From Bryobacterales bacterium (GTDB lineage: Bacteria; Acidobacteriota; Terriglobia; Bryobacterales; UBA6623), in contig OZ241924.1 in NCBI GenBank assembly GCA_965203925.1, positions 4,085,894-4,149,893 on the forward strand: 64,000 nucleotides of DNA, given 5' to 3'. The notes under the pieces were generated by a model. The model was not told the DNA's origin, made no database searches, and saw nothing but the letters and a program-made list of their open reading frames with translations. Position 1 is the first letter of the stretch, and each line of letters opens with the position of its first letter. This document shows, piece after piece, positions 4,410 to 18,147 of this stretch. A program made the position numbers and the translations under genes.

Positions 4410-5651
4410 CTACGTCCGGTTGTAAACGAATGAATCAACCAAAGCGGCACGAATCTGCCTGATTCGCAACAAGGGTCCGTCTGTTGGAGGTGGCTCGACA
4501 TACCAAGGCTGGGCGTAGAGCCATTGAAGTAGTTTGCGATAGTTTTGGGGCTCACCTAGGGTCGAAAATGGCTCCCCAGAGAGTTTGCCAAAAGCCCTGT
4601 TGGACTTGCCGTTAAGACTCAGAATTCGGTCCGGTCTCGCAAGCGTCAGCAGCAGCGTTGCAGTCCCGTGGGACACGTTAGGAATTTTCTTTAGCTGCCG
4701 CAGCTTCGCAACGGCGACATCTGGGAACTCGGTATCGTCGGCTGACACAATTCGGTTGAGCATTGGTCGGATCTCGTCCTCCCTATCGAACACTACTTTC
4801 GCATGTACCGGCCTCATGCGTCCCAGCAGCCCCCACCAACTCGAACTCGTGTTCCGTATACCGCCCTTCAGCTGGATTTGAGAATCGCGATCAAGCTTCG
4901 ACCATCTCAGGTTACCAAGCAGCAATCTCCGACGCTCGTATATGGCTTTCATGTAGCTCCCATCTTGGTAACCTAGAATCCTCCATTCTGCACCTTTGTC
5001 CTTTAACAACTCTTCACACTGTCTAAGTGCTTGTCGATACCCTTCAAGTGTCAGAGGACGATAGACATCGTTGAGAAGATCGATCCGCCGATCGACCGGC
5101 GAAACAATTCTTCGGAAGTCTCGATGGGGCTGGTTGCGCTTCCAGTGTTCCCTATACCGACGGATCATGTCCCTGACGGGGCGGTCCGTACGTCGATTCC
5201 ACCGTTCTCGGAACCATCTTTCCAGCTCATCTGCCGTCTTCCCCGGGCCTATTTGTACGAGTATTTCAGTGTTCTTAGGACCCTCGCTCCCTCCAAACCC
5301 AGCAGTCGTAAAGTTGGCGCTACCGACCCACGCCTGAATCTCGCCGGGCTCGTTCGTGTGTCGATGGAAAATGTACAGCTTTGGATGGAACAGACGACCC
5401 TCGGCACCGACGATCTTGAGATCTCCATTCGTGATTCTATAAAGGTCTTCCAAAGCATCGGGGTGCGTCGCGTTCCCAGCCGTACCGACGATGGCCCGGA
5501 CTTTAACGGGCCTGTTCTCTCGTTTTGTGGCCTCCTCCAATATGCGTAAGTGCTTGCCGCAGGTGGCCCATGCTGTGGCAATATCCACCTGCGTGTGATC
5601 ATTCAGAAGAGTTTCGAACAGGTCATGGATCTTGTCATCACGGAGTACCAT
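4410..5651 (-). CDS. PLD-superfamily protein with a single HKD motif (Nuc/BfiI-like nuclease type) and an uncharacterised C-terminal region of about 250 aa
   Basis: FHPKLYIF...WVGSANFTTAGF fits HxK...GSxN. The C-terminal half has no motif I recognise. Spot GC is 33/60 (5041-5100) and 34/60 (4681-4740) against 39/60 in core DNA (20401-20460). Confidence 0.7.
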   Translation of the reverse strand: MVLRDDKIHDLFETLLNDHTQVDIATAWATCGKHLRILEEATKRENRPVKVRAIVGTAGNATHPDALEDLYRITNGDLKIVGAEGRLFHPKLYIFHRHTNEPGEIQAWVGSANFTTAGFGGSEGPKNTEILVQIGPGKTADELERWFRERWNRRTDRPVRDMIRRYREHWKRNQPHRDFRRIVSPVDRRIDLLNDVYRPLTLEGYRQALRQCEELLKDKGAEWRILGYQDGSYMKAIYERRRLLLGNLRWSKLDRDSQIQLKGGIRNTSSSWWGLLGRMRPVHAKVVFDREDEIRPMLNRIVSADDTEFPDVAVAKLRQLKKIPNVSHGTATLLLTLARPDRILSLNGKSNRAFGKLSGEPFSTLGEPQNYRKLLQWLYAQPWYVEPPPTDGPLLRIRQIRAALVDSFVYNRT

Positions 5652-5930: not shown

Positions 5931-5954
5931 ACTAGCCTCGATTCCCAACGCAGG
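5931..5954. repeat. IS terminal inverted repeat (left)
   Basis: 24/24 reverse-complement match to 8161..8184. The outer CTAG (5932..5935) could instead be a palindromic target duplication. Confidence 0.8.
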
Positions 5955-5984
5955 TTTTTTGCCTGCAGTTTTTGGGGTGCCGGT

Positions 5985-7718
5985 TTAGAGGAAGGCGATC
6001 TTGAGAGGGAGGTTGTTGAGCCACGGGATCGTCACGGCCTCGTCAGCGATGCCGGCCTGTACTAAGAGCGGGTTGTAGGCGCGGCGTCCGAAGCGCACTT
6101 CAATTTGGTCGGGAAGGATCTCGATGCGCGCGGAGGCCTGCACGAACTTGCGGAAGAGCGTGCGGGCCTTGGCCTCGGCCAGCTTGCCCCCGAGCAAGCG
6201 TCCCAGCAGGCGGTACAGGCCGGAGGCCATCAGGGTGATCTGCAGGTCGACGTCGATCTTCTGGGGCACCTTTGAGGAGAGCGCGTCCATGTGGAAGAAG
6301 TCGATGGCCTCTGCGATGGCGTTCTCGATCAGCATGCGGCGCGCGTAGCGCTCGATGATCTCCGGCACGGGGTTCTTGAGCTGGTTGGTGATCAGCAGGA
6401 TGGGCCTGCGCTTGCCGATGTTGGTGACCGCGATCTGGCGGATCTCGTGCGGATAGGCGGGCAGCTCCAGACGCTGGTCCAGCACGCGCGGGTTGCGGTA
6501 GCGTCGGCCGATGTTGTGCAGCCGCACCCGGCGCCAATCGGCCTGCGCCGCGCTGGCGACTTGCGCCAGCACGCGCTTGGTGCGCGAGCGCAGGGTCACA
6601 AAGCCGATGCCGCGCCGGTGCAGTTGGCAGAGACCGGGGCGGGTGGTGAAGGTGCTGTCGAAGACCAGCTCGTGCGGGTCGCGGCCGGTGCGCTCGCGCC
6701 ACCAGTCGGCGAAGAGCAGGGCGGCCTGGGGGCGGTCTTGCTTGGCGATGCAGGTGTTGCCGTAGCACAGCGCGCGGGTGTCGGCGTCGCGCGCGACGAG
6801 AGCCAGGATGCCCTTCTGCTTGCGGGAGCGTTTCGAGACGTAGTGCTTGCCGACGAGGGCGTCGTCGCCGTGGTAGGGGATGGTGTGGAAGTCGAGGTCG
6901 AAGGAGTCGCCGCGAGGCAGGCCTTGCTCGTGAAGGGCCTTGTTCCACAGGCGCGCGAGGGTGCGGATGTGGCGCGGGTCGACGCGGCAGGAATACTCGG
7001 TGAGGGTGGAGCGCTTGGGGATGCGGTTGAGGCCGGCGAAGAGGGCCAGGCCGGGGTCGCAGACCTCGCTGTCGACATGGGAGTGGCGGGCGGAGCCGTA
7101 GAGTTTGAGGGCGAGCAGGGAGAGCACGGCGTTGGGGGCGGGCAGCATGGAGCTGCCGGGCATGTGCGCCTGTTCGAGGATGGAGGCAAGCGGGAAGGGG
7201 GCGAGCAGGCGGGCGAACAGGAAGAGGCCGCCGTAGCGGCTTCGGAAGCGCCGCGGTGAGAGGTCGAGGGAGCGCCGGTCAGCGGGGGGTTCGAGCAGGC
7301 GGGGCAGCTGGTCGGGCCTGCGGCGGGGCAGCTTGGGGACACCGTTGTCGGCGAGGACGCGGTGAACGACGGTCTTGCTGGCGGGGATGCCGAGGCGGGC
7401 GAGCTCTGCGGAGATCTCGAGGATGGAGAGGTTGTTCTCGCGGCGGAGCTTCAGGATGGTGCGATCGCGCTCGATGGATACCGGCGTGGGGAGGCCGGGC
7501 TTGCGGCCGGGAGTGGAGGGCAGGAAGAAGTCGCGATCGGGGTGCTTGTCGAGCTTGCCGGCAAGCTGCAGCAGGTAGGCGGGGGAATACTTGAAGCGCC
7601 GAGCGGCTTCAGGCAAGGAGAGGCCGTCGACGCAGAGGGCGCGGAGGGCTTCGTACTGGCGGTGGTTGGGGTTTTGGGGTTTGAGGAAGACGGGGGCCAG
7701 GTGGGAGAAGTCTTTCAT
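5985..7718 (-). CDS. DDE transposase (IS4/IS5-superfamily type; family not resolved)
   Basis: Start trimmed to ATG 7718 (MKDFSHLAPVFLK...). An N-terminal HTH-like region is present, and the C-terminal YARRMLIEN fits the Y-(2)-R-(3)-E signature of IS4/IS5-type DDE enzymes. The gene lies inside perfect inverted repeats. Confidence 0.75.
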   Translation of the reverse strand: MKDFSHLAPVFLKPQNPNHRQYEALRALCVDGLSLPEAARRFKYSPAYLLQLAGKLDKHPDRDFFLPSTPGRKPGLPTPVSIERDRTILKLRRENNLSILEISAELARLGIPASKTVVHRVLADNGVPKLPRRRPDQLPRLLEPPADRRSLDLSPRRFRSRYGGLFLFARLLAPFPLASILEQAHMPGSSMLPAPNAVLSLLALKLYGSARHSHVDSEVCDPGLALFAGLNRIPKRSTLTEYSCRVDPRHIRTLARLWNKALHEQGLPRGDSFDLDFHTIPYHGDDALVGKHYVSKRSRKQKGILALVARDADTRALCYGNTCIAKQDRPQAALLFADWWRERTGRDPHELVFDSTFTTRPGLCQLHRRGIGFVTLRSRTKRVLAQVASAAQADWRRVRLHNIGRRYRNPRVLDQRLELPAYPHEIRQIAVTNIGKRRPILLITNQLKNPVPEIIERYARRMLIENAIAEAIDFFHMDALSSKVPQKIDVDLQITLMASGLYRLLGRLLGGKLAEAKARTLFRKFVQASARIEILPDQIEVRFGRRAYNPLLVQAGIADEAVTIPWLNNLPLKIAFL

Positions 7719-8160
7719 TGAAATAGGAGGAATTGGGAACTTTATCCACCATACCATAATGACGATTCCTGCAGGTGCCTGAGGGAGGGCTCGGAGGCAC
7801 TTCGGAGAGCAGCCGCAAGGCACTCGGGAGAGACCGGTCGACAGGCGCATGACCGCCAAGCATGGCGATTGCGGGCGATATCCGGGCCTTCTGCGGTGTG
7901 GGGGCCAAAACCGGGGCTGAGCCGAGATGGCCAAGGGACGCGCCCCGCGGGGCTCTCGGGAGAGGGGCCACAAGAACTCCTAATGAAACTGTGGATATAG
8001 TTCCTGCTTCCGGTATATCCACTAAGACGAAAGAGCTGAAGCGAGCAGCAGTACCGCGCCACGAGAGCATCGGACACCCTTGGACCAATGGGTGAGTGCC
8101 TGTCGCCAGCGGATCCTGACGGACTGGTGCAGCGATCTGGCCGTCAGCTGAAGTCGATTA

Positions 8161-8184
8161 ACCTGCGTTGGGAATCGAGGCTAG
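8161..8184. repeat. IS terminal inverted repeat (right)
   Basis: 24/24 reverse-complement match to 5931..5954. Confidence 0.8.
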
Positions 8185-8495
8185 TGGATTCTCGCCGTGT
8201 TGTCGAGTTATTGTTATGATTCCCGATGCGTTGGGGGCATGCGCTGCAACCGCTTCTTGAGGGTCTCCGCCCGCGGGCAATGGCTAGGATCGCGGACTAG
8301 TCGCGCAAGTGGTCGGGCCCACGGCGACCGATCGGGGGAGCGAGGCGTCCGATGCCCGCGGTCGATGGCGTTGGCCGCCAATGCGCGAAGAGCCCAACGT
8401 AATTGGAAATGCGGCTCGAGGGCCATCCCGTTCAAGAACTTCCTCGATCGCTGATTGTCCCCGGCGTGGCGGTTCAGCGCCGTGTGCCGACAGCC

Positions 8496-9863
8496 ATGAA
8501 CCGGAACGAATCGGGCACGGACGAGGCACTGAAGGTGATCCGGGGCATGCTCTCGGAACCGGGTCGAAACGTCGTTCTCCGTCGCGAGGTGATTGGCGCG
8601 AGGGTGCCGCCCGGACCTTGTGACCGTGCGCTTCGGAAGCTGCTTTCGATCGGCGAGATCGTGCGCTTCGGGCAAGGCGTCTACTGCGTCGCCGGGGTGA
8701 AGCTCTTCACTGCCCTCGATGAAGTCCTGCAGCGGCTGGGCATCAAGAAGCTGCCCAGCCCCGGGGTCAGGGGGTACAGCCAGTATCTGGGCGGGAACGT
8801 TGTGAGAACGAGTATGCGTGTTGCGCGGCAGCTGCGCCATCGCGGGGTGCGGATCCGATTCGAGACACGCGATGGCAAACTGGTCATGCCAAGGTCGACG
8901 ATGTGCTCCAAGCTCAACGAAATGCCGTCGAGACGTGAGATCGAGGACCACTACCACTCTTTCGAGCGCTGCCACAGCATGGCCCGGGCAGAAAAGGACC
9001 TGCTCGTGGGCAAGGCCGTCTCCTTCTTAGAGCAGTTTGACGGCGGTGACTGCGCCCTGGCGCTTGAGGGTGGCACGGCACTGGCCTACTGCTACAAGTG
9101 GATTCAGCGCTTTTCGGAGGCCTTGGACATCCGCTTCATCCCTCCCCAGAGCTGGCCGTCTCGCAGGTCACCGGAGAGGATCGAGCGTTTCCGCGACTTC
9201 GGCCAGAGGTTTGCCGCAGCCGTTGCCAAGAAGCTTCCGTGGCTAACGCGGTCGAAGAAGGGTCGTTTCAGGCCAGATGGGTCGGTGCAGCCCCTGATCT
9301 TCGACTTCACCAGTCGCACTTCACATGCGGACGTGATGCAAGGCATCAAGTTTGAGCTAGTGGACAGGCGCTGGCATTTGCCGTTATGCCCGGTCGTGCG
9401 CCGCACGGGACGAGTTCTCATGGCAATCGACGCAGCGGAGATTGCAGCGGGCAAGTGGCAGGCGCTTGCGACAAGGCTGCCGCGAAAGCCTGGCTATGCC
9501 GACTTGGTGCGCCACCCGGCGGACTTGGCCCAGATCAGTTCGGGGATCGGACGCTTGGAGCGTGGCGCGATCTGCGAAGTCGTCAAGGGCTGGGGTGGTG
9601 TCAGTGAGGAGAGCTTGGTGGGCGGCCTAGACGCGCTCATCAATCAGCCGCAATGGGAGTTGAACTATTTGGACTACATGGACCGCATGGGAACGCGGCC
9701 CGTCAGCGAATTTGTCGGGGACCACCTGCCGTGGGACGAGCTTCGCAACCGGCTTTGTGCGGCAACGGTGGATTCAGGACTGGTACACCCAGACTCCCTG
9801 CGGGACATCAGGGGCTGGACTCCCGGCAAGCGTGCATTGCAGGACTGCGGCCCACCGCGCTAG
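8496..9863 (+). CDS. Fusion of an AbiEi-like winged-helix N-terminus to an AbiEii/DUF1814-like nucleotidyltransferase
   Basis: The N-terminus, ALKVIRGML...CDRALRKLLSIGEIVRFGQGVYCV, resembles AbiEi antitoxin wHTH domains. The central LEGGTALAYCYKWIQRFSEALDIRF resembles the AbiEii GG(T/S)AL...RxSxDxDF block, and the later GKWQALATR...DLVRHPADL resembles the K..R..RDxYDL block. The start (ATG 8496 versus the earlier 8403) is uncertain. Confidence 0.6.
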   Translation: MNRNESGTDEALKVIRGMLSEPGRNVVLRREVIGARVPPGPCDRALRKLLSIGEIVRFGQGVYCVAGVKLFTALDEVLQRLGIKKLPSPGVRGYSQYLGGNVVRTSMRVARQLRHRGVRIRFETRDGKLVMPRSTMCSKLNEMPSRREIEDHYHSFERCHSMARAEKDLLVGKAVSFLEQFDGGDCALALEGGTALAYCYKWIQRFSEALDIRFIPPQSWPSRRSPERIERFRDFGQRFAAAVAKKLPWLTRSKKGRFRPDGSVQPLIFDFTSRTSHADVMQGIKFELVDRRWHLPLCPVVRRTGRVLMAIDAAEIAAGKWQALATRLPRKPGYADLVRHPADLAQISSGIGRLERGAICEVVKGWGGVSEESLVGGLDALINQPQWELNYLDYMDRMGTRPVSEFVGDHLPWDELRNRLCAATVDSGLVHPDSLRDIRGWTPGKRALQDCGPPR

Positions 9864-13968: not shown

Positions 13969-16900
13969 TCACGCATTCCGGATGAGGCCAAGCAGTTCGT
14001 CAGCCGAGAGCTTGCCGCTCATGTCGGCGCCTTCGAGGAGACTGTCGGCCAAGTCGCGTTTGGTCGCGTGCAAGTCAACGATCTTCTCCTCAATCGAATT
14101 CTTCATGACCAGCCGGTAGACCGTCACCGGTCGGGTCTGGCCGATTCTGTGAGCGCGGTCTGATGCTTGATCCTCCACAGCAGGGTTCCACCAGGGGTCA
14201 AGGTGAATCACGTAGTCGGCTGCCGTGAGGTTCAGCCCGTGCCCCCCCGCACGAAGGCTGATCAGGAAGAGGTCCGAAGCGCCCGCCTGGAACTTCGCGA
14301 CCTCCCTCTTGCGGGCGGCCTTCGGCGTACTGCCGTCCAGATAGCGGTATGTGATACCCTCCTTGTCAAGGCTCTCCCGGACGATGGCCAGATGGGAGAC
14401 GAACTGGCTGAAGACCAGCGCCTTGTGGCCACCGTCCTTGAGATCCCGGACGATTCGCAAGAACGCTGCCAGCTTGGAGCCCGCGGTCGCTGTCCCGGAC
14501 ATGGCCAGCCGAGGGTGGCAGCATGCAAGTCGGAGCTTCGTGAGCTCCGCAAAGATGCGCAAGTGCTTGCCGCCCTTTTCGCTGCTGCCGGACTCTAAGG
14601 AGGCGATTGCCGTCAGTCGGACGGCTTCGTAGAGCGCCCGCTCTTCCTTGCTCATCTCGACTCGCTGGGTGACCTCCGTGCGGGGCGGGAGTTCGTCGAG
14701 CACCGCCGCTTTCGTCCGCCTCAGGATGAACGGCTGGAGCAGGCCCTTGAGGCGGCGGCGGACCTTGGAGTCCTTGTCCCGGTGAATCGGAATGGCGAAA
14801 TTCGCGGAGAAGGACTCCAAAGAGCCCAGCAGGCCGGGATTGATGAAGTTGAACAGGTTCCACATCTCTCCGAGGTGGTTCTCGATTGGAGTGCCGGTCG
14901 TAATCATGCGGAACTTGCCTCGAAGCCGCATCGCGGCCTTTGACCGCATCGTTTCCCGATTCTTGATGGCCTGGGCTTCGTCGAGTATGACCATCTCCCA
15001 CTGCTGCGTGGACAGCAGATCGGACTCTTGATGCAGCAGGCCGTAGCTGCATACCAGCACATCAAAGGGCCCTAGGTCCTTGAGCAGCAGCTTTCTGTTC
15101 TTTGACGGGAACTCAAGGGCGCTGAGGGCCGGTGTGAACCGGCGGGCCTCGTCGATCCAGTTCGCACATACCGAAGTGGGGGCGACTACGAGTGTGGGGC
15201 CATCCGGCGCCCTCGCAAGCGCGACCGAGAGGGCTTGGATCGTCTTGCCGAGGCCCATGTCATCCGCGAGGCAGGCTCCCGCGCCCCATGCAGCCAATCG
15301 GGACGCCCACCGGAACCCGTCCACCTGATAGTCCCGCAGTTGAGCCTGCAGGGTGGTCGGCAGTGTCGGGATCAACTGTTCCGCGTCGCGGAAGCGCCGG
15401 AGCTGCCGGGACCAAGACTCGTCTGCATCCAATTCGCCAGCCTCGTCGGCGATCCCCTCTATCGCGTGCGCTCGGATCGGTCGAAAACGCAGGCCCTTCT
15501 TGCCGTGCCGCTCCGCGTACCCGGCAAGATCGTCGATCTTCTTTTGAAGGGCCGACGTGAGCGCCACGAATTCGCGTTCGCCGATCTGGAGGAACCTTCC
15601 CGTGGCACTCTTGGACCGCTCGATGAGTTCGCGCAGGCTGAGCACGAGGCCCTCATCCAGTTCGATCGCCCCATCGATGCCGAACCAGTCTCGGGCTTTC
15701 CGGATCTTGAGTGCCAGTCGATCAGTTCCCGCAATTCCGAGGATGCGCAGGGGCTTTCCCTTCGGCCAGCCCACGATCACGCCATCGCCGATCTGCCACA
15801 GTTGCTCAAGCAGCTCTAGGCAATCGAGCGGCTCCGGAACCAACCAAGCATCGCCATCGCGCTCGGCATCCCTCAGCACTGGACACGCCTTAACAATCTC
15901 ACGCAACTTGCGGGTTTCAAGCTTTAGGTTTCGATTTACCTTCACGCGCTTCTGGTCGACGACTGAGAACACCACACGAGCTCCCCTGCCGGGGAAGTAA
16001 CTCGGACCGCCCTTCGATAGTGGGACGACTAGAGCTTCTGCCTGCAGGCCTTTCCCATGTGGAGTCAAGTGGATCCTCGGAGTGGAATCTGCTGGCTTTT
16101 CTACTACATCTGCTCCATCACCGCCTATGTCAGACTGGACCGATAACAGACCACTGACTGCTGCGACAGCTTTGTTGACTCTCGTTTTTGACGACACCGG
16201 GACGGTCAAGGCTCCCCCGCCAAGCGCATTTATGAGTTGTCTATGCTTTTCCTCAAATATAGTGACGACTATCTTTCCAGAATTTGGCTGTGTTATGACA
16301 ACACTTCCTTCCACTGGAAGTTTCGGAACAAGCCGGATCTTCACTTTGCCGTGCCGCGACGAGACCTTTAGCTGAGGTTCATCTTTGGTCACTTCCATCT
16401 GTTCACTAGGATTGGCCTCCTGAAATACCAGAGGGTGCCCGGCCAGTCTCACAATTGCGTCTTCAGGATCGATGTAATAGTCCGATGGCCCCCAAGACTT
16501 GATGGCCCCGCATACCCTGACATCGTCAAGCGTGACGTATTCTGGCTTGTCATCACTACCTAAGTGTTTCAGCGCAACCTTGCGGCCCTTTGACCAGCGA
16601 CCAGACTTTAGACGAGTCTGTAAGATGGGCGTAACGGACGCTGCTTTTTTCTTGTAGGAAACCCGCCAAACCAGTCGGGGCATCTTGGTCGCGCTCTTTT
16701 TCTCTGTTGATTCGATACCCAACCGCTCAAGGGCTTGCAAGCTGCGCTCCCATGTGGATTGGAGATCTATGGCCGACATAAGTGGAGAACAGTCCAGATC
16801 CGCATGGCTCGAAAAATCCGGGTGAGGAGTGGGTTTGCCACCATGGTGTCTGAACACGCTGTCGAACTCAGCAGATAGCCATCGATAATCGACTGCGCTA

Positions 16901-18147
16901 CTGTGTAGAAGCATGATTTCAATGGATTCCATCAGGGACGTACTGGCCTTCAAATCCATCCAAATGACCGCGAGAAATGTGATCAGAATCTCCTGAGGAT
17001 CGACTAAACTATGCTTCTTCTCAATGCTTCCATACAGGTCTCTCGATTCCTGTATTCTACCGCCAACCATCATACCCACACATTGGAGGATCGAGTATAC
17101 TACCTCTTTCCAAGGTCGTTTCTTGAGCGCTCTTTTCAAGTACTCAAGTCCTTCTTTGATTGACGATTGGCTACCGATTCCGAAACATGACACAAGATAG
17201 TATAACTCGCACTTTGGGTGGATCAAAACCTTGCGTCTTCGGTGTTCCTTTTTTCGCCGCTTGACCGACTCTCTGAAGGCTTCCAGTGAGCGTTTGTAAT
17301 CACCTTGCATGCACAATACTCTGCCGAGAAAAGCGTAACGATCATCAGCATCTATATACGTAAGCGCTTTATGTGATGTGGGTAGATTGCCTCGAAGTAG
17401 ACTATGGTCTGCCATCAGGGACAAGTCTAGATCTGCGGTGGAGGACTCAGTCATGATGCGATTCAAGACTTCGAGTATGTCATCTGCCTCAAGGAGCAAT
17501 GCAGTGCGCATTGCCAAGAGATTTCCGAGAGCAGGATTGCGAATCTCTGGATCTCTTGAGAACATCCATTCTGGATCAAAAGGATTATCGAAGACCTCTT
17601 GTATGAAGTCCATTTGCGAATACTGCGAATCGACTTCGTGCCATATATATGAGCTCATGACTCTGGAATAGATCGTAGAATCGTTGAGATAAGCAGCCCA
17701 TCTGGCAAAAGCAATAGCTTCCTGCTTATCATAAAAATACACATAAGACGAGCCACGACTGTAGTTGCGATACCCAGACTTGTCGATGATCTTCACCCAT
17801 GTCTCGAACCTGCCCTTGCCCGCTGCATGCCGGGCGATCAACTCCACAACGAGAGAATTGCATTCGAATCGATGCTGCTGCTTCTCCAGAATCTTCTTCT
17901 TGACTAGAGCCCTTGCGGCTCGATTGAGGGTGCTCTCCGCGTTGCCGACGGGTTTGGCGTTCCCCATTGGCGTTCCGGCCAGCTTCAGCAGCTGATGAGC
18001 AAGACCGATCGAGGCTGGCTCGTACAGCACGGCCAGCACCTCCGTCAGGTCGCGCTCCAAGCGTCGCAAGCCTTGGTACACCCTGAAGAGCCCTTGCGAG
18101 GCGGTTGTCGTTTCCTTCTGTTGCTTCATTCGGTCGCCTCGGCTCAT
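13969..18147 (-). CDS. SNF2/Rad54-family helicase (1392 aa) with a long N-terminal non-helicase region
   Basis: SNF2 motifs are present: LADDMGLGKTIQ (I), ILDEAQAIKN (II), TGTPIEN (III), and the helicase-C block LISLRAGGHGLNLTAADYVIHLDPWWNPAVEDQASDRAHRIGQ. The N-terminal roughly 900 aa hold a wHTH-like start, helical repeats and an SNF2-associated-like middle. Confidence 0.85.
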   Translation of the reverse strand: MSRGDRMKQQKETTTASQGLFRVYQGLRRLERDLTEVLAVLYEPASIGLAHQLLKLAGTPMGNAKPVGNAESTLNRAARALVKKKILEKQQHRFECNSLVVELIARHAAGKGRFETWVKIIDKSGYRNYSRGSSYVYFYDKQEAIAFARWAAYLNDSTIYSRVMSSYIWHEVDSQYSQMDFIQEVFDNPFDPEWMFSRDPEIRNPALGNLLAMRTALLLEADDILEVLNRIMTESSTADLDLSLMADHSLLRGNLPTSHKALTYIDADDRYAFLGRVLCMQGDYKRSLEAFRESVKRRKKEHRRRKVLIHPKCELYYLVSCFGIGSQSSIKEGLEYLKRALKKRPWKEVVYSILQCVGMMVGGRIQESRDLYGSIEKKHSLVDPQEILITFLAVIWMDLKASTSLMESIEIMLLHSSAVDYRWLSAEFDSVFRHHGGKPTPHPDFSSHADLDCSPLMSAIDLQSTWERSLQALERLGIESTEKKSATKMPRLVWRVSYKKKAASVTPILQTRLKSGRWSKGRKVALKHLGSDDKPEYVTLDDVRVCGAIKSWGPSDYYIDPEDAIVRLAGHPLVFQEANPSEQMEVTKDEPQLKVSSRHGKVKIRLVPKLPVEGSVVITQPNSGKIVVTIFEEKHRQLINALGGGALTVPVSSKTRVNKAVAAVSGLLSVQSDIGGDGADVVEKPADSTPRIHLTPHGKGLQAEALVVPLSKGGPSYFPGRGARVVFSVVDQKRVKVNRNLKLETRKLREIVKACPVLRDAERDGDAWLVPEPLDCLELLEQLWQIGDGVIVGWPKGKPLRILGIAGTDRLALKIRKARDWFGIDGAIELDEGLVLSLRELIERSKSATGRFLQIGEREFVALTSALQKKIDDLAGYAERHGKKGLRFRPIRAHAIEGIADEAGELDADESWSRQLRRFRDAEQLIPTLPTTLQAQLRDYQVDGFRWASRLAAWGAGACLADDMGLGKTIQALSVALARAPDGPTLVVAPTSVCANWIDEARRFTPALSALEFPSKNRKLLLKDLGPFDVLVCSYGLLHQESDLLSTQQWEMVILDEAQAIKNRETMRSKAAMRLRGKFRMITTGTPIENHLGEMWNLFNFINPGLLGSLESFSANFAIPIHRDKDSKVRRRLKGLLQPFILRRTKAAVLDELPPRTEVTQRVEMSKEERALYEAVRLTAIASLESGSSEKGGKHLRIFAELTKLRLACCHPRLAMSGTATAGSKLAAFLRIVRDLKDGGHKALVFSQFVSHLAIVRESLDKEGITYRYLDGSTPKAARKREVAKFQAGASDLFLISLRAGGHGLNLTAADYVIHLDPWWNPAVEDQASDRAHRIGQTRPVTVYRLVMKNSIEEKIVDLHATKRDLADSLLEGADMSGKLSADELLGLIRNA

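Follow-up and report, generated by a model that had tools for sequence, protein, structure and literature searches.

The closest described systems, AbiE of Streptococcus agalactiae and Lactococcus and MenAT of Mycobacterium tuberculosis, are bicistronic operons, in which the regulator or antitoxin is encoded first and a nucleotidyltransferase (NTase) second. The first protein carries a winged-helix signature of the AbiEi_4 type. The NTase belongs to Pfam family PF08843, contains the motifs I, III and IV as well as a motif II of the form R-x-S/T-x-D-x-D, and has a conserved phospho-acceptor position. The same features in the same order are found in the protein family described here, but in that family they reside in one polypeptide. 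The member studied is encoded in a Bryobacterales bacterium (GenBank assembly GCA_965203925.1, contig OZ241924.1), in a stretch of 64,000 nucleotides (positions 4,085,894 to 4,149,893 of the forward strand) that is called the window below and to which the coordinates refer. The gene occupies positions 8496..9863 of the + strand, stop codon included, and its 455-residue product consists of a DUF6088-like module followed by an AbiEii/DUF1814 NTase. It is likely that the gene is a single-chain toxin-antitoxin (abortive-infection) module of the AbiE/MenAT type, and that this particular copy is dead.

Dy et al. defined the AbiEii motifs as hG[G/S] (motif I), R63/D67/D69 (motif II), K173...R180 (motif III) and +DxxD (motif IV) (PMC3985639). 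The mutants G49A, R63A, D67A, D69A, D67E, D69E, K173A, R180A and D192A are non-toxic, and the D67A/D69A double mutant has lost GTP binding (PMC3985639). The phospho-acceptor is T65 in AbiEii (10.64898/2026.01.19.700257) and S78 in MenT3 (PMC7205606). Views of the AbiE and MenAT systems have changed of late, and a 2026 preprint (10.64898/2026.01.19.700257) reports that auto-phosphorylation of the toxin is induced by its antitoxin. An in-silico survey of marine toxin-antitoxin systems listed 13 AbiEii/DUF6088 pairs, which were termed a novel combination (PMC12654330).

The open reading frame (ORF) is uninterrupted over positions 8403..9863 (+). Translation from the ATG at 8496 gives the 455-residue protein, whose N-terminus coincides with the N-termini of the aligned homologues. 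The original prediction had placed both AbiE domains in a single ORF, and the ORF and all of the peptides quoted for it are present. The AlphaFold2 model, for which an 81-sequence alignment of the fused family was the input, has a predicted local distance difference test (pLDDT) score of 89.1 and a predicted template modelling score (pTM) of 0.85. The latter value, for a chain of two modules, is compatible with a fixed intramolecular arrangement of the modules in the model. A 253-residue ORF on the antisense strand (8214-8975, -) extends across the 5' portion of the gene; it is taken to be a chance product of the GC-rich sequence.

The fusion is a property of the family. A search of 5.8 billion proteins found 93 relatives of the fused protein, of which about 80 are full length. 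These have 417-473 residues, cover 86-100% of the query and are 35-62% identical to it, with one more at 94%. They can be aligned colinearly over the full length, from the N-terminal helix through to the C-terminus, and both halves contribute to the invariant columns (34) and to the near-invariant ones (about 90). The cluster formed with the window protein at 90% identity has nine members, eight of which are 455 residues long. Because the single ORF is kept in about 80 homologues and in these near-identical proteins, a frameshift or read-through as the source of the fusion was ruled out. A truly frameshifted relative (L012, 218-1502), which is split just past the linker (...EIEAH, then out of frame), looks different and is recognizable as such. 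The split copy was called as a 165-residue gene and a 237-residue 'AbiEii' gene, so that a pseudogene mimics a two-gene system. Frameshifted and truncated copies do occur in the family. No separate antitoxin gene was found upstream of the fused gene in the eight genomic contexts examined; the gene always stands alone and its neighbors differ each time. The organization is therefore not that of a bicistronic AbiE-type operon with separate antitoxin and toxin genes, either here or in the roughly 80 homologues.

A scan in which a single representative genome stood for each GTDB species located the fused gene in 35 loci. The hosts belong to three phyla and include Bryobacterales, Pseudomonadales/Ca. 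Azotimanducaceae, other Gammaproteobacteria and Latescibacterota. The locus nearest to the window gene, at 94%, comes from another Bryobacterales metagenome-assembled genome (MAG). Almost all of the loci (L014-L048) are in uncultured MAGs, and the isolate names of several of these (SB, COS, RHO and IRC bins), which are the sole basis for the assignment, suggest marine, sponge-associated hosts. A search bearing on a phage origin of the gene gave no phage hits. In the databases the family is named merely 'nucleotidyl transferase AbiEii/AbiGii toxin family protein', and no NCBIfam profile matches the fused protein. No account of a fusion of AbiEi or DUF6088 with AbiEii came to light in a full-text literature search, beyond whose reach the domain-architecture databases lay and which leaves absence unproven. 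The single-chain layout is a conserved yet undescribed form of a known phage-defence/toxin-antitoxin system.

The assignment of the C-terminal part, residues 146-440 (8931..9815, +), as an AbiEii/DUF1814 NTase is supported by Pfam, Foldseek and the alignment with two-gene AbiEii, and agrees with the original prediction. The AbiEii profile PF08843 scores 46.2 bits against a cut-off of 22.5 over residues 178-397 and matches all 81 family members. Many AbiEii models of PADLOC match as well, the best at 4.8e-11. In the AlphaFold2 model an α/β domain is followed by a helical region that reaches to about residue 440. The best matches in the Protein Data Bank (PDB) are the putative nucleotidyltransferase of H. 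pylori, JHP933 (4OK0 and 4O8S, E 2.6e-5), which we take to be a DUF1814 protein. Enzymes of the Pol-β type come next.

Motif I is represented by G192-G193 in the sequence L-E-G-G-T (9069..9074, +), with glycine in 80 of the 81 sequences at either position. Motif III, K320-W-Q-A-L-A-T-R327 (9453..9476, +), has the K-x6-R spacing of AbiEii K173/R180, and its lysine and arginine are found in 81 and 78 sequences, respectively. Motif IV is present as a variant, R339-H-P-A-D343 (9510..9524, +), whose RHxxD form also occurs in the two-gene AbiEii of another locus (L011); R339, H340 and D343 are conserved in 80 sequences each. Motif II, R205-F-S207-E-A209-L-D211 (9108..9128, +), is spaced as AbiEii R63/T65/D67/D69. 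Its columns contain R205 in 81 sequences, S207 in 79, D209 in 77 and D211 in 71. S207 occupies the phospho-acceptor position, equivalent to T65 of AbiEii and S78 of MenT3. Judging from these columns, the intact members of the family keep every catalytic motif together with a serine at the phospho-acceptor position. The window protein has motifs I, III and IV as defined for AbiEii, but its motif II lacks one of the two aspartates that accompany the arginine. The complete motif is present in the family consensus R-F-S-E-D-L-D and in two near-identical alleles (P0182 and P0186).

The missing residue is the first catalytic aspartate, as the original prediction had it. Gap-free BLASTP and MAFFT alignments with the two-gene AbiEii of L011 place RFSEDIDF opposite RFSEALDI, and A209 thus corresponds to D67 of S. 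agalactiae AbiEii. An alternative register that would retain a DxD was ruled out, because A209 lies opposite aspartate in the gap-free alignments and the next candidate pair is D211-I-R213; no intact DxD is found at a neighboring position. The substitution D209A predicts loss of metal binding, and hence of toxicity and auto-phosphorylation. It is very improbable that the enzyme is still active, with D211 and a nearby acidic residue (E208 or a third carboxylate) compensating for the lost aspartate. D211 is intact in the window protein, and E208 is adjacent and conserved, being E or D in 81 of the 81 sequences. However, D67A and even the conservative D67E abolish the toxicity of AbiEii (PMC3985639), and the motif II mutant D82A of MenT3 is not phosphorylated (PMC7205606). 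Furthermore, E208 would point away from the active site, as inferred from the geometry of the β-strand.

The alanine is specific to the allele. Codon 209 is GCC in the window (9120..9122, +) and GAC in the family and in the near-identical alleles. In two related contigs (L001 and L002) codon 209 is GAC, but codon 211, which is GAC in the window, is GGC (Gly). The nine proteins of the 90% cluster present several states of the motif. P0182 and P0186, which are 97% identical to the window protein, have intact D-L-D, four members have D-L-G, one has N-L-G, and the window protein has A-L-D. P0188 has D-L-D, but also G192D in motif I and G319D beside the motif III lysine, and by its sequence is probably another route to an inactive enzyme in the same lineage. 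The degenerate motif noted in the original prediction does not extend to the family, whose consensus is intact. Since the 97%-identical relatives keep D-L-D, the comparison dates D209A as a very recent, allele-specific change.

The loss of a catalytic aspartate recurs throughout the family. One Asp of the DxD is replaced in 14 of the 81 full-length members, D209 by A, G or N and D211 by eight different residues, whereas the other essential residues deviate in merely 0-3 members each. For every one of the 14 broken members the nearest neighbors are intact or differently mutated. In the GTDB loci the DxD is broken in 5 of 32. The simplest reading is that of an active and costly ancestral enzyme, for which loss-of-function alleles arise repeatedly and segregate. 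These counts also bear on the possibility that the real allele is intact and that C instead of A at 9121 stems from faulty assembly or sequencing. Only a single base is involved, but comparable changes have arisen independently in numerous assemblies, and they affect both Asp codons. NCBI and ENA list the exact protein, encoded on a 7.06-Mb contig. An error is accordingly highly improbable.

General decay of the window copy was considered and ruled out. The copy departs from near-invariant columns at 21 positions, but nearly all of these departures are shared with P0001. In two relatives with intact DLD, P0002 and P0003, the numbers are comparably high (18 and 16). Apart from D209A, a single departure is private to the window copy. 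The ratio of non-synonymous to synonymous substitution rates (dN/dS), calculated against the 94% relative, is 0.32 for the whole gene and 0.20 for the NTase part. The neighboring phospholipase D (PLD)-like gene gives a similar value, 0.28, and thus the ORF is not freely decaying.

Such constraint could mean that a dead allele has been retained in a new role, for example as a DNA-binding regulator, or as a decoy or immunity protein that binds nucleotides or tRNA and has lost nucleotide transfer. The reading frame is unbroken, and the dN/dS of 0.20 for the NTase part was obtained between two independently mutated alleles. The knock-outs also prefer the two aspartates, whereas R205, K320 and other residues for binding do not vary. 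However, an allele of 97% identity still has DLD, which makes the mutation very young, and therefore the low dN/dS is largely a record of the period in which the enzyme was active. The broken alleles are scattered among intact nearest neighbors, with no large dead clade in the sample, and frameshifted and truncated copies also exist. We regard a new function as rather unlikely. The original prediction had offered 'inactive or repurposed' for the NTase; the first is well supported and the second is without support. From its sequence, the window copy is most likely a catalytically dead, non-toxic allele, one of many independent losses in the DxD pair within the family.

The N-terminal part of the protein is less straightforward to name. 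Residues 6-124 (8511..8867, +) form a module in the antitoxin position. It begins with a winged helix-turn-helix (wHTH), residues 7-65 (8514..8690, +), with an AbiEi_4-like signature (...GEIVRFGQGVYCV), which was identified from the AlphaFold2 secondary structure, Foldseek, a sub-threshold Pfam match and PADLOC. A small α/β subdomain follows at residues 70-123 of the model. It contains the loop G93-Y94-S95-Q96 (residues 93-96; 8772..8783, +). In the family alignment G93 and S95 do not vary, and the conservation of Y94 is at least 90%. Residues 92-97 have a pLDDT below 50 and are the least confident part of the model despite their conservation. In stand-alone DUF6088 proteins a longer loop, Y-N-x-G-R-S-T-Q, aligns with this one. 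The combination of conservation and low model confidence makes the loop a candidate functional element, which may be directed at the active site. A variable basic linker, residues 125-145 (8868..8930, +), marks the fusion junction and consists of indel-rich, poorly conserved columns.

The original prediction called the N-terminus AbiEi-like. A winged helix in the antitoxin position is indeed there, but the identity with canonical AbiEi (COG5340) is unsupported. The Pfam AbiEi_4 profile (PF13338) scores 16.6 bits over residues 44-66, under its cut-off of 25, unlike the AbiEii profile, which is above its own. The PADLOC AbiEi model matches residues 20-72 at 6.2e-5. Among the 81 family members, 64 match AbiEi_4 at E <= 0.1, the best at 6.5e-5, and no other HTH family recurs. 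The fold match is not specific. Isolated winged-helix domains superimpose on the module with a Foldseek template modelling (TM) score of about 0.75, and the solved AbiEi structure, 6Y8Q, ranks 22nd (E 0.098) in the search with residues 1-140, among generic wHTH regulators, and 19th (E 0.16) in the search with the full-length protein. The region past the wHTH amounts to about 55 residues, and the AbiEi C-terminal domain of about 125 residues is absent from the 124-residue module. Thus the label 'AbiEi-like' is fair for the winged helix, but a strict 'AbiEi' is not.

Stand-alone relatives give a better description. In an exhaustive search of 1.84 billion proteins with a profile of residues 1-140, the strong matches were fused proteins or their fragments. 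The weaker matches were stand-alone proteins of 135-200 residues, aligned over residues 9-124, approximately, of the query. Eight of ten such relatives that were scanned match Pfam DUF6088, seven of them above the cut-off. Profile comparison with hhalign relates the module to one of them, P0101, with a probability of 96.4% (E 1.2e-9; query 6-124, template 62-195 of 196), and P0101 scores 36.8 bits with DUF6088 (PF19570, cut-off 25). A Bradyrhizobium protein annotated as DUF6088 is matched with a probability of 96.6% (E 6.9e-10; query 12-123, template 8-137 of 138). The relationship is remote, since hmmscan of the fused proteins for DUF6088 was negative, with a lone match in one of the 81 members at E 0.083. 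The module is best described, from these profile comparisons, as DUF6088-type, consisting of an AbiEi_4-like wHTH and a subdomain of about 55 residues.

The boundaries and the gene order of the stand-alone relatives fit those of the fused protein closely. The C-termini of the stand-alone DUF6088 proteins correspond to residue 123-124, which is exactly where the fused linker begins, and canonical AbiEii starts at about residue 146-163. In each of the four loci examined, the gene directly downstream of the stand-alone relative encodes AbiEii. The DUF6088-type gene of L011 overlaps its AbiEii gene by 23 nt, that of L013 is immediately upstream, the two genes of the Bradyrhizobium plasmid p184_1 are 91 nt apart, and those of a Novosphingobium plasmid overlap. 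With tblastn the fused protein matches adjacent DUF6088 and AbiEii genes as two colinear pieces. In the p184_1 pair of Bradyrhizobium sp. 184, for example, the 138-residue DUF6088 protein aligns end to end with residues 12-123 and the downstream AbiEii aligns with the rest. The identity in the conserved blocks is about 30-40%, and the parts that are separate genes in these pairs are joined by a linker here. Because the stand-alone relatives are homologous to the N-module, end at the linker and sit upstream of AbiEii, the sequence comparisons identify the protein as a fusion of both genes of a DUF6088-AbiEii pair.

A mechanism can be proposed by analogy with the two-gene systems. A gene of DUF6088 type in the antitoxin position would have been joined to an AbiEii/DUF1814 toxin gene, with about 20 residues as the linker. 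As in AbiEi-AbiEii and MenA-MenT, the N-module may dock on the NTase, in this case in cis, and keep it inactive, probably by stimulating its auto-phosphorylation at S207. Its winged helix could bind DNA and autoregulate transcription. Dephosphorylation, cleavage of the linker or a phage cue might then free the NTase, which would add nucleotides to the 3' ends of tRNA and so stop translation. Fused single-chain toxin-antitoxin proteins with an antitoxin element in cis with the toxin domain are exemplified by CapRel-SJ46 and EzeT. Their folds and chemistries are unrelated to those of the present family; the concept is shared, and cis-inhibition in the fused family is a proposal.

Several points weigh against this interpretation. 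Toxicity, neutralization in cis, phosphorylation and DNA binding are inferred by analogy for every member of the family, and the antitoxin role of DUF6088 is itself putative. That the N-module docks at the catalytic site is a proposal that goes beyond the model scores. Sequence-profile searches with the N-module found no AbiEi in the PDB, and Foldseek does not distinguish AbiEi from wHTH regulators in general. Searches upstream of the gene for operator-like inverted repeats or a sigma-70 promoter produced nothing that was convincing or conserved. In addition, the knock-outs are clustered on the two aspartates instead of being distributed over all essential residues, which may mean something beyond loss of toxicity.

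The same facts could be read in terms of a DNA-guided or regulatory nucleotidyltransferase with no part in defence, in which the winged helix serves only for targeting or regulation of the enzyme. Toxicity is a prediction by analogy, the wHTH fold is generic, and in several genomes the gene lies among housekeeping genes. However, the stand-alone relatives of the N-module hold the antitoxin position upstream of AbiEii genes, the distribution of the family is patchy and its neighborhoods are variable, and the phospho-acceptor serine is conserved. Moreover, recurrent catalytic knock-outs together with pseudogenes are what is expected of a costly toxin. A regulatory enzyme is therefore quite unlikely, and the toxin-antitoxin module is the interpretation that we prefer.

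As the original prediction had noted, an insertion sequence (IS) lies beside the gene and a PLD-nuclease-like gene diverges from it. The IS element (5936..8180, -) is 2245 bp long, encodes an IS1380-like DDE transposase, identified from its database matches, and was delimited by BLAST break-points against L001 and L002, from both of which it is absent. It is flanked by a CTAG target duplication (5932-5935 and 8181-8184), and its terminal inverted repeats have 38-nt arms that are 87% complementary, the CTAG duplication included. It is inserted 316 bp upstream of the fused gene, in the intergenic region between that gene and the PLD-like gene, and is not part of the fused-gene system. The PLD-like gene (4410-5651, -) encodes 413 residues, with an N-terminal PLD/NgoFVII-like nuclease domain and an uncharacterized C-terminal half. 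It has weak PADLOC matches to ZacB and DrmC and lies in a segment of lower GC content (54% versus about 65%). A functional link between this gene and the fused gene was rejected as unlikely, because the two are paired in the 94% relative only and not in more distant relatives. The remaining flanking genes are of housekeeping or PSCyt/PSD type, which leaves the proposed defence-island-like context weak; 'defence islet' is acceptable for the locus, but 'defence island' is overstated. Further away, at 13969-18147 (-), the window encodes a SNF2-family helicase of 1392 residues with very strong PADLOC matches to DpdE and ZorD (5e-188). No Pfam domain is found in the N-terminal two-thirds of the helicase, and the DNA at 16001-18000 has a GC content of 50%.

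Although the window copy is probably non-functional as a toxin, the family to which it belongs has wider implications. As a natural single-chain version, it would offer a compact model of antitoxin-induced auto-phosphorylation, with the stoichiometry fixed at 1:1. It also raises the issue of how the toxin is set free if simple degradation or dilution of the antitoxin is not possible. The AbiE family would join the short list of fused toxin-antitoxin proteins. For annotation, the consequence is that defence finders based on two genes would probably miss the fused proteins as complete systems. More tentatively, the intact members may be self-contained, single-chain abortive-infection proteins similar to type VII toxin-antitoxin systems, in which the DUF6088 module silences its own NTase in cis through auto-phosphorylation of the conserved serine, and the excess of independent knock-outs of the catalytic aspartates may reflect a high fitness cost of the toxin in the MAG lineages that carry it; this broader proposal is possible but somewhat doubtful. 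The several independent catalytic knock-outs inside one cluster of 90% identity are a clear population-level signature, which could help to recognize costly toxins in metagenomes.

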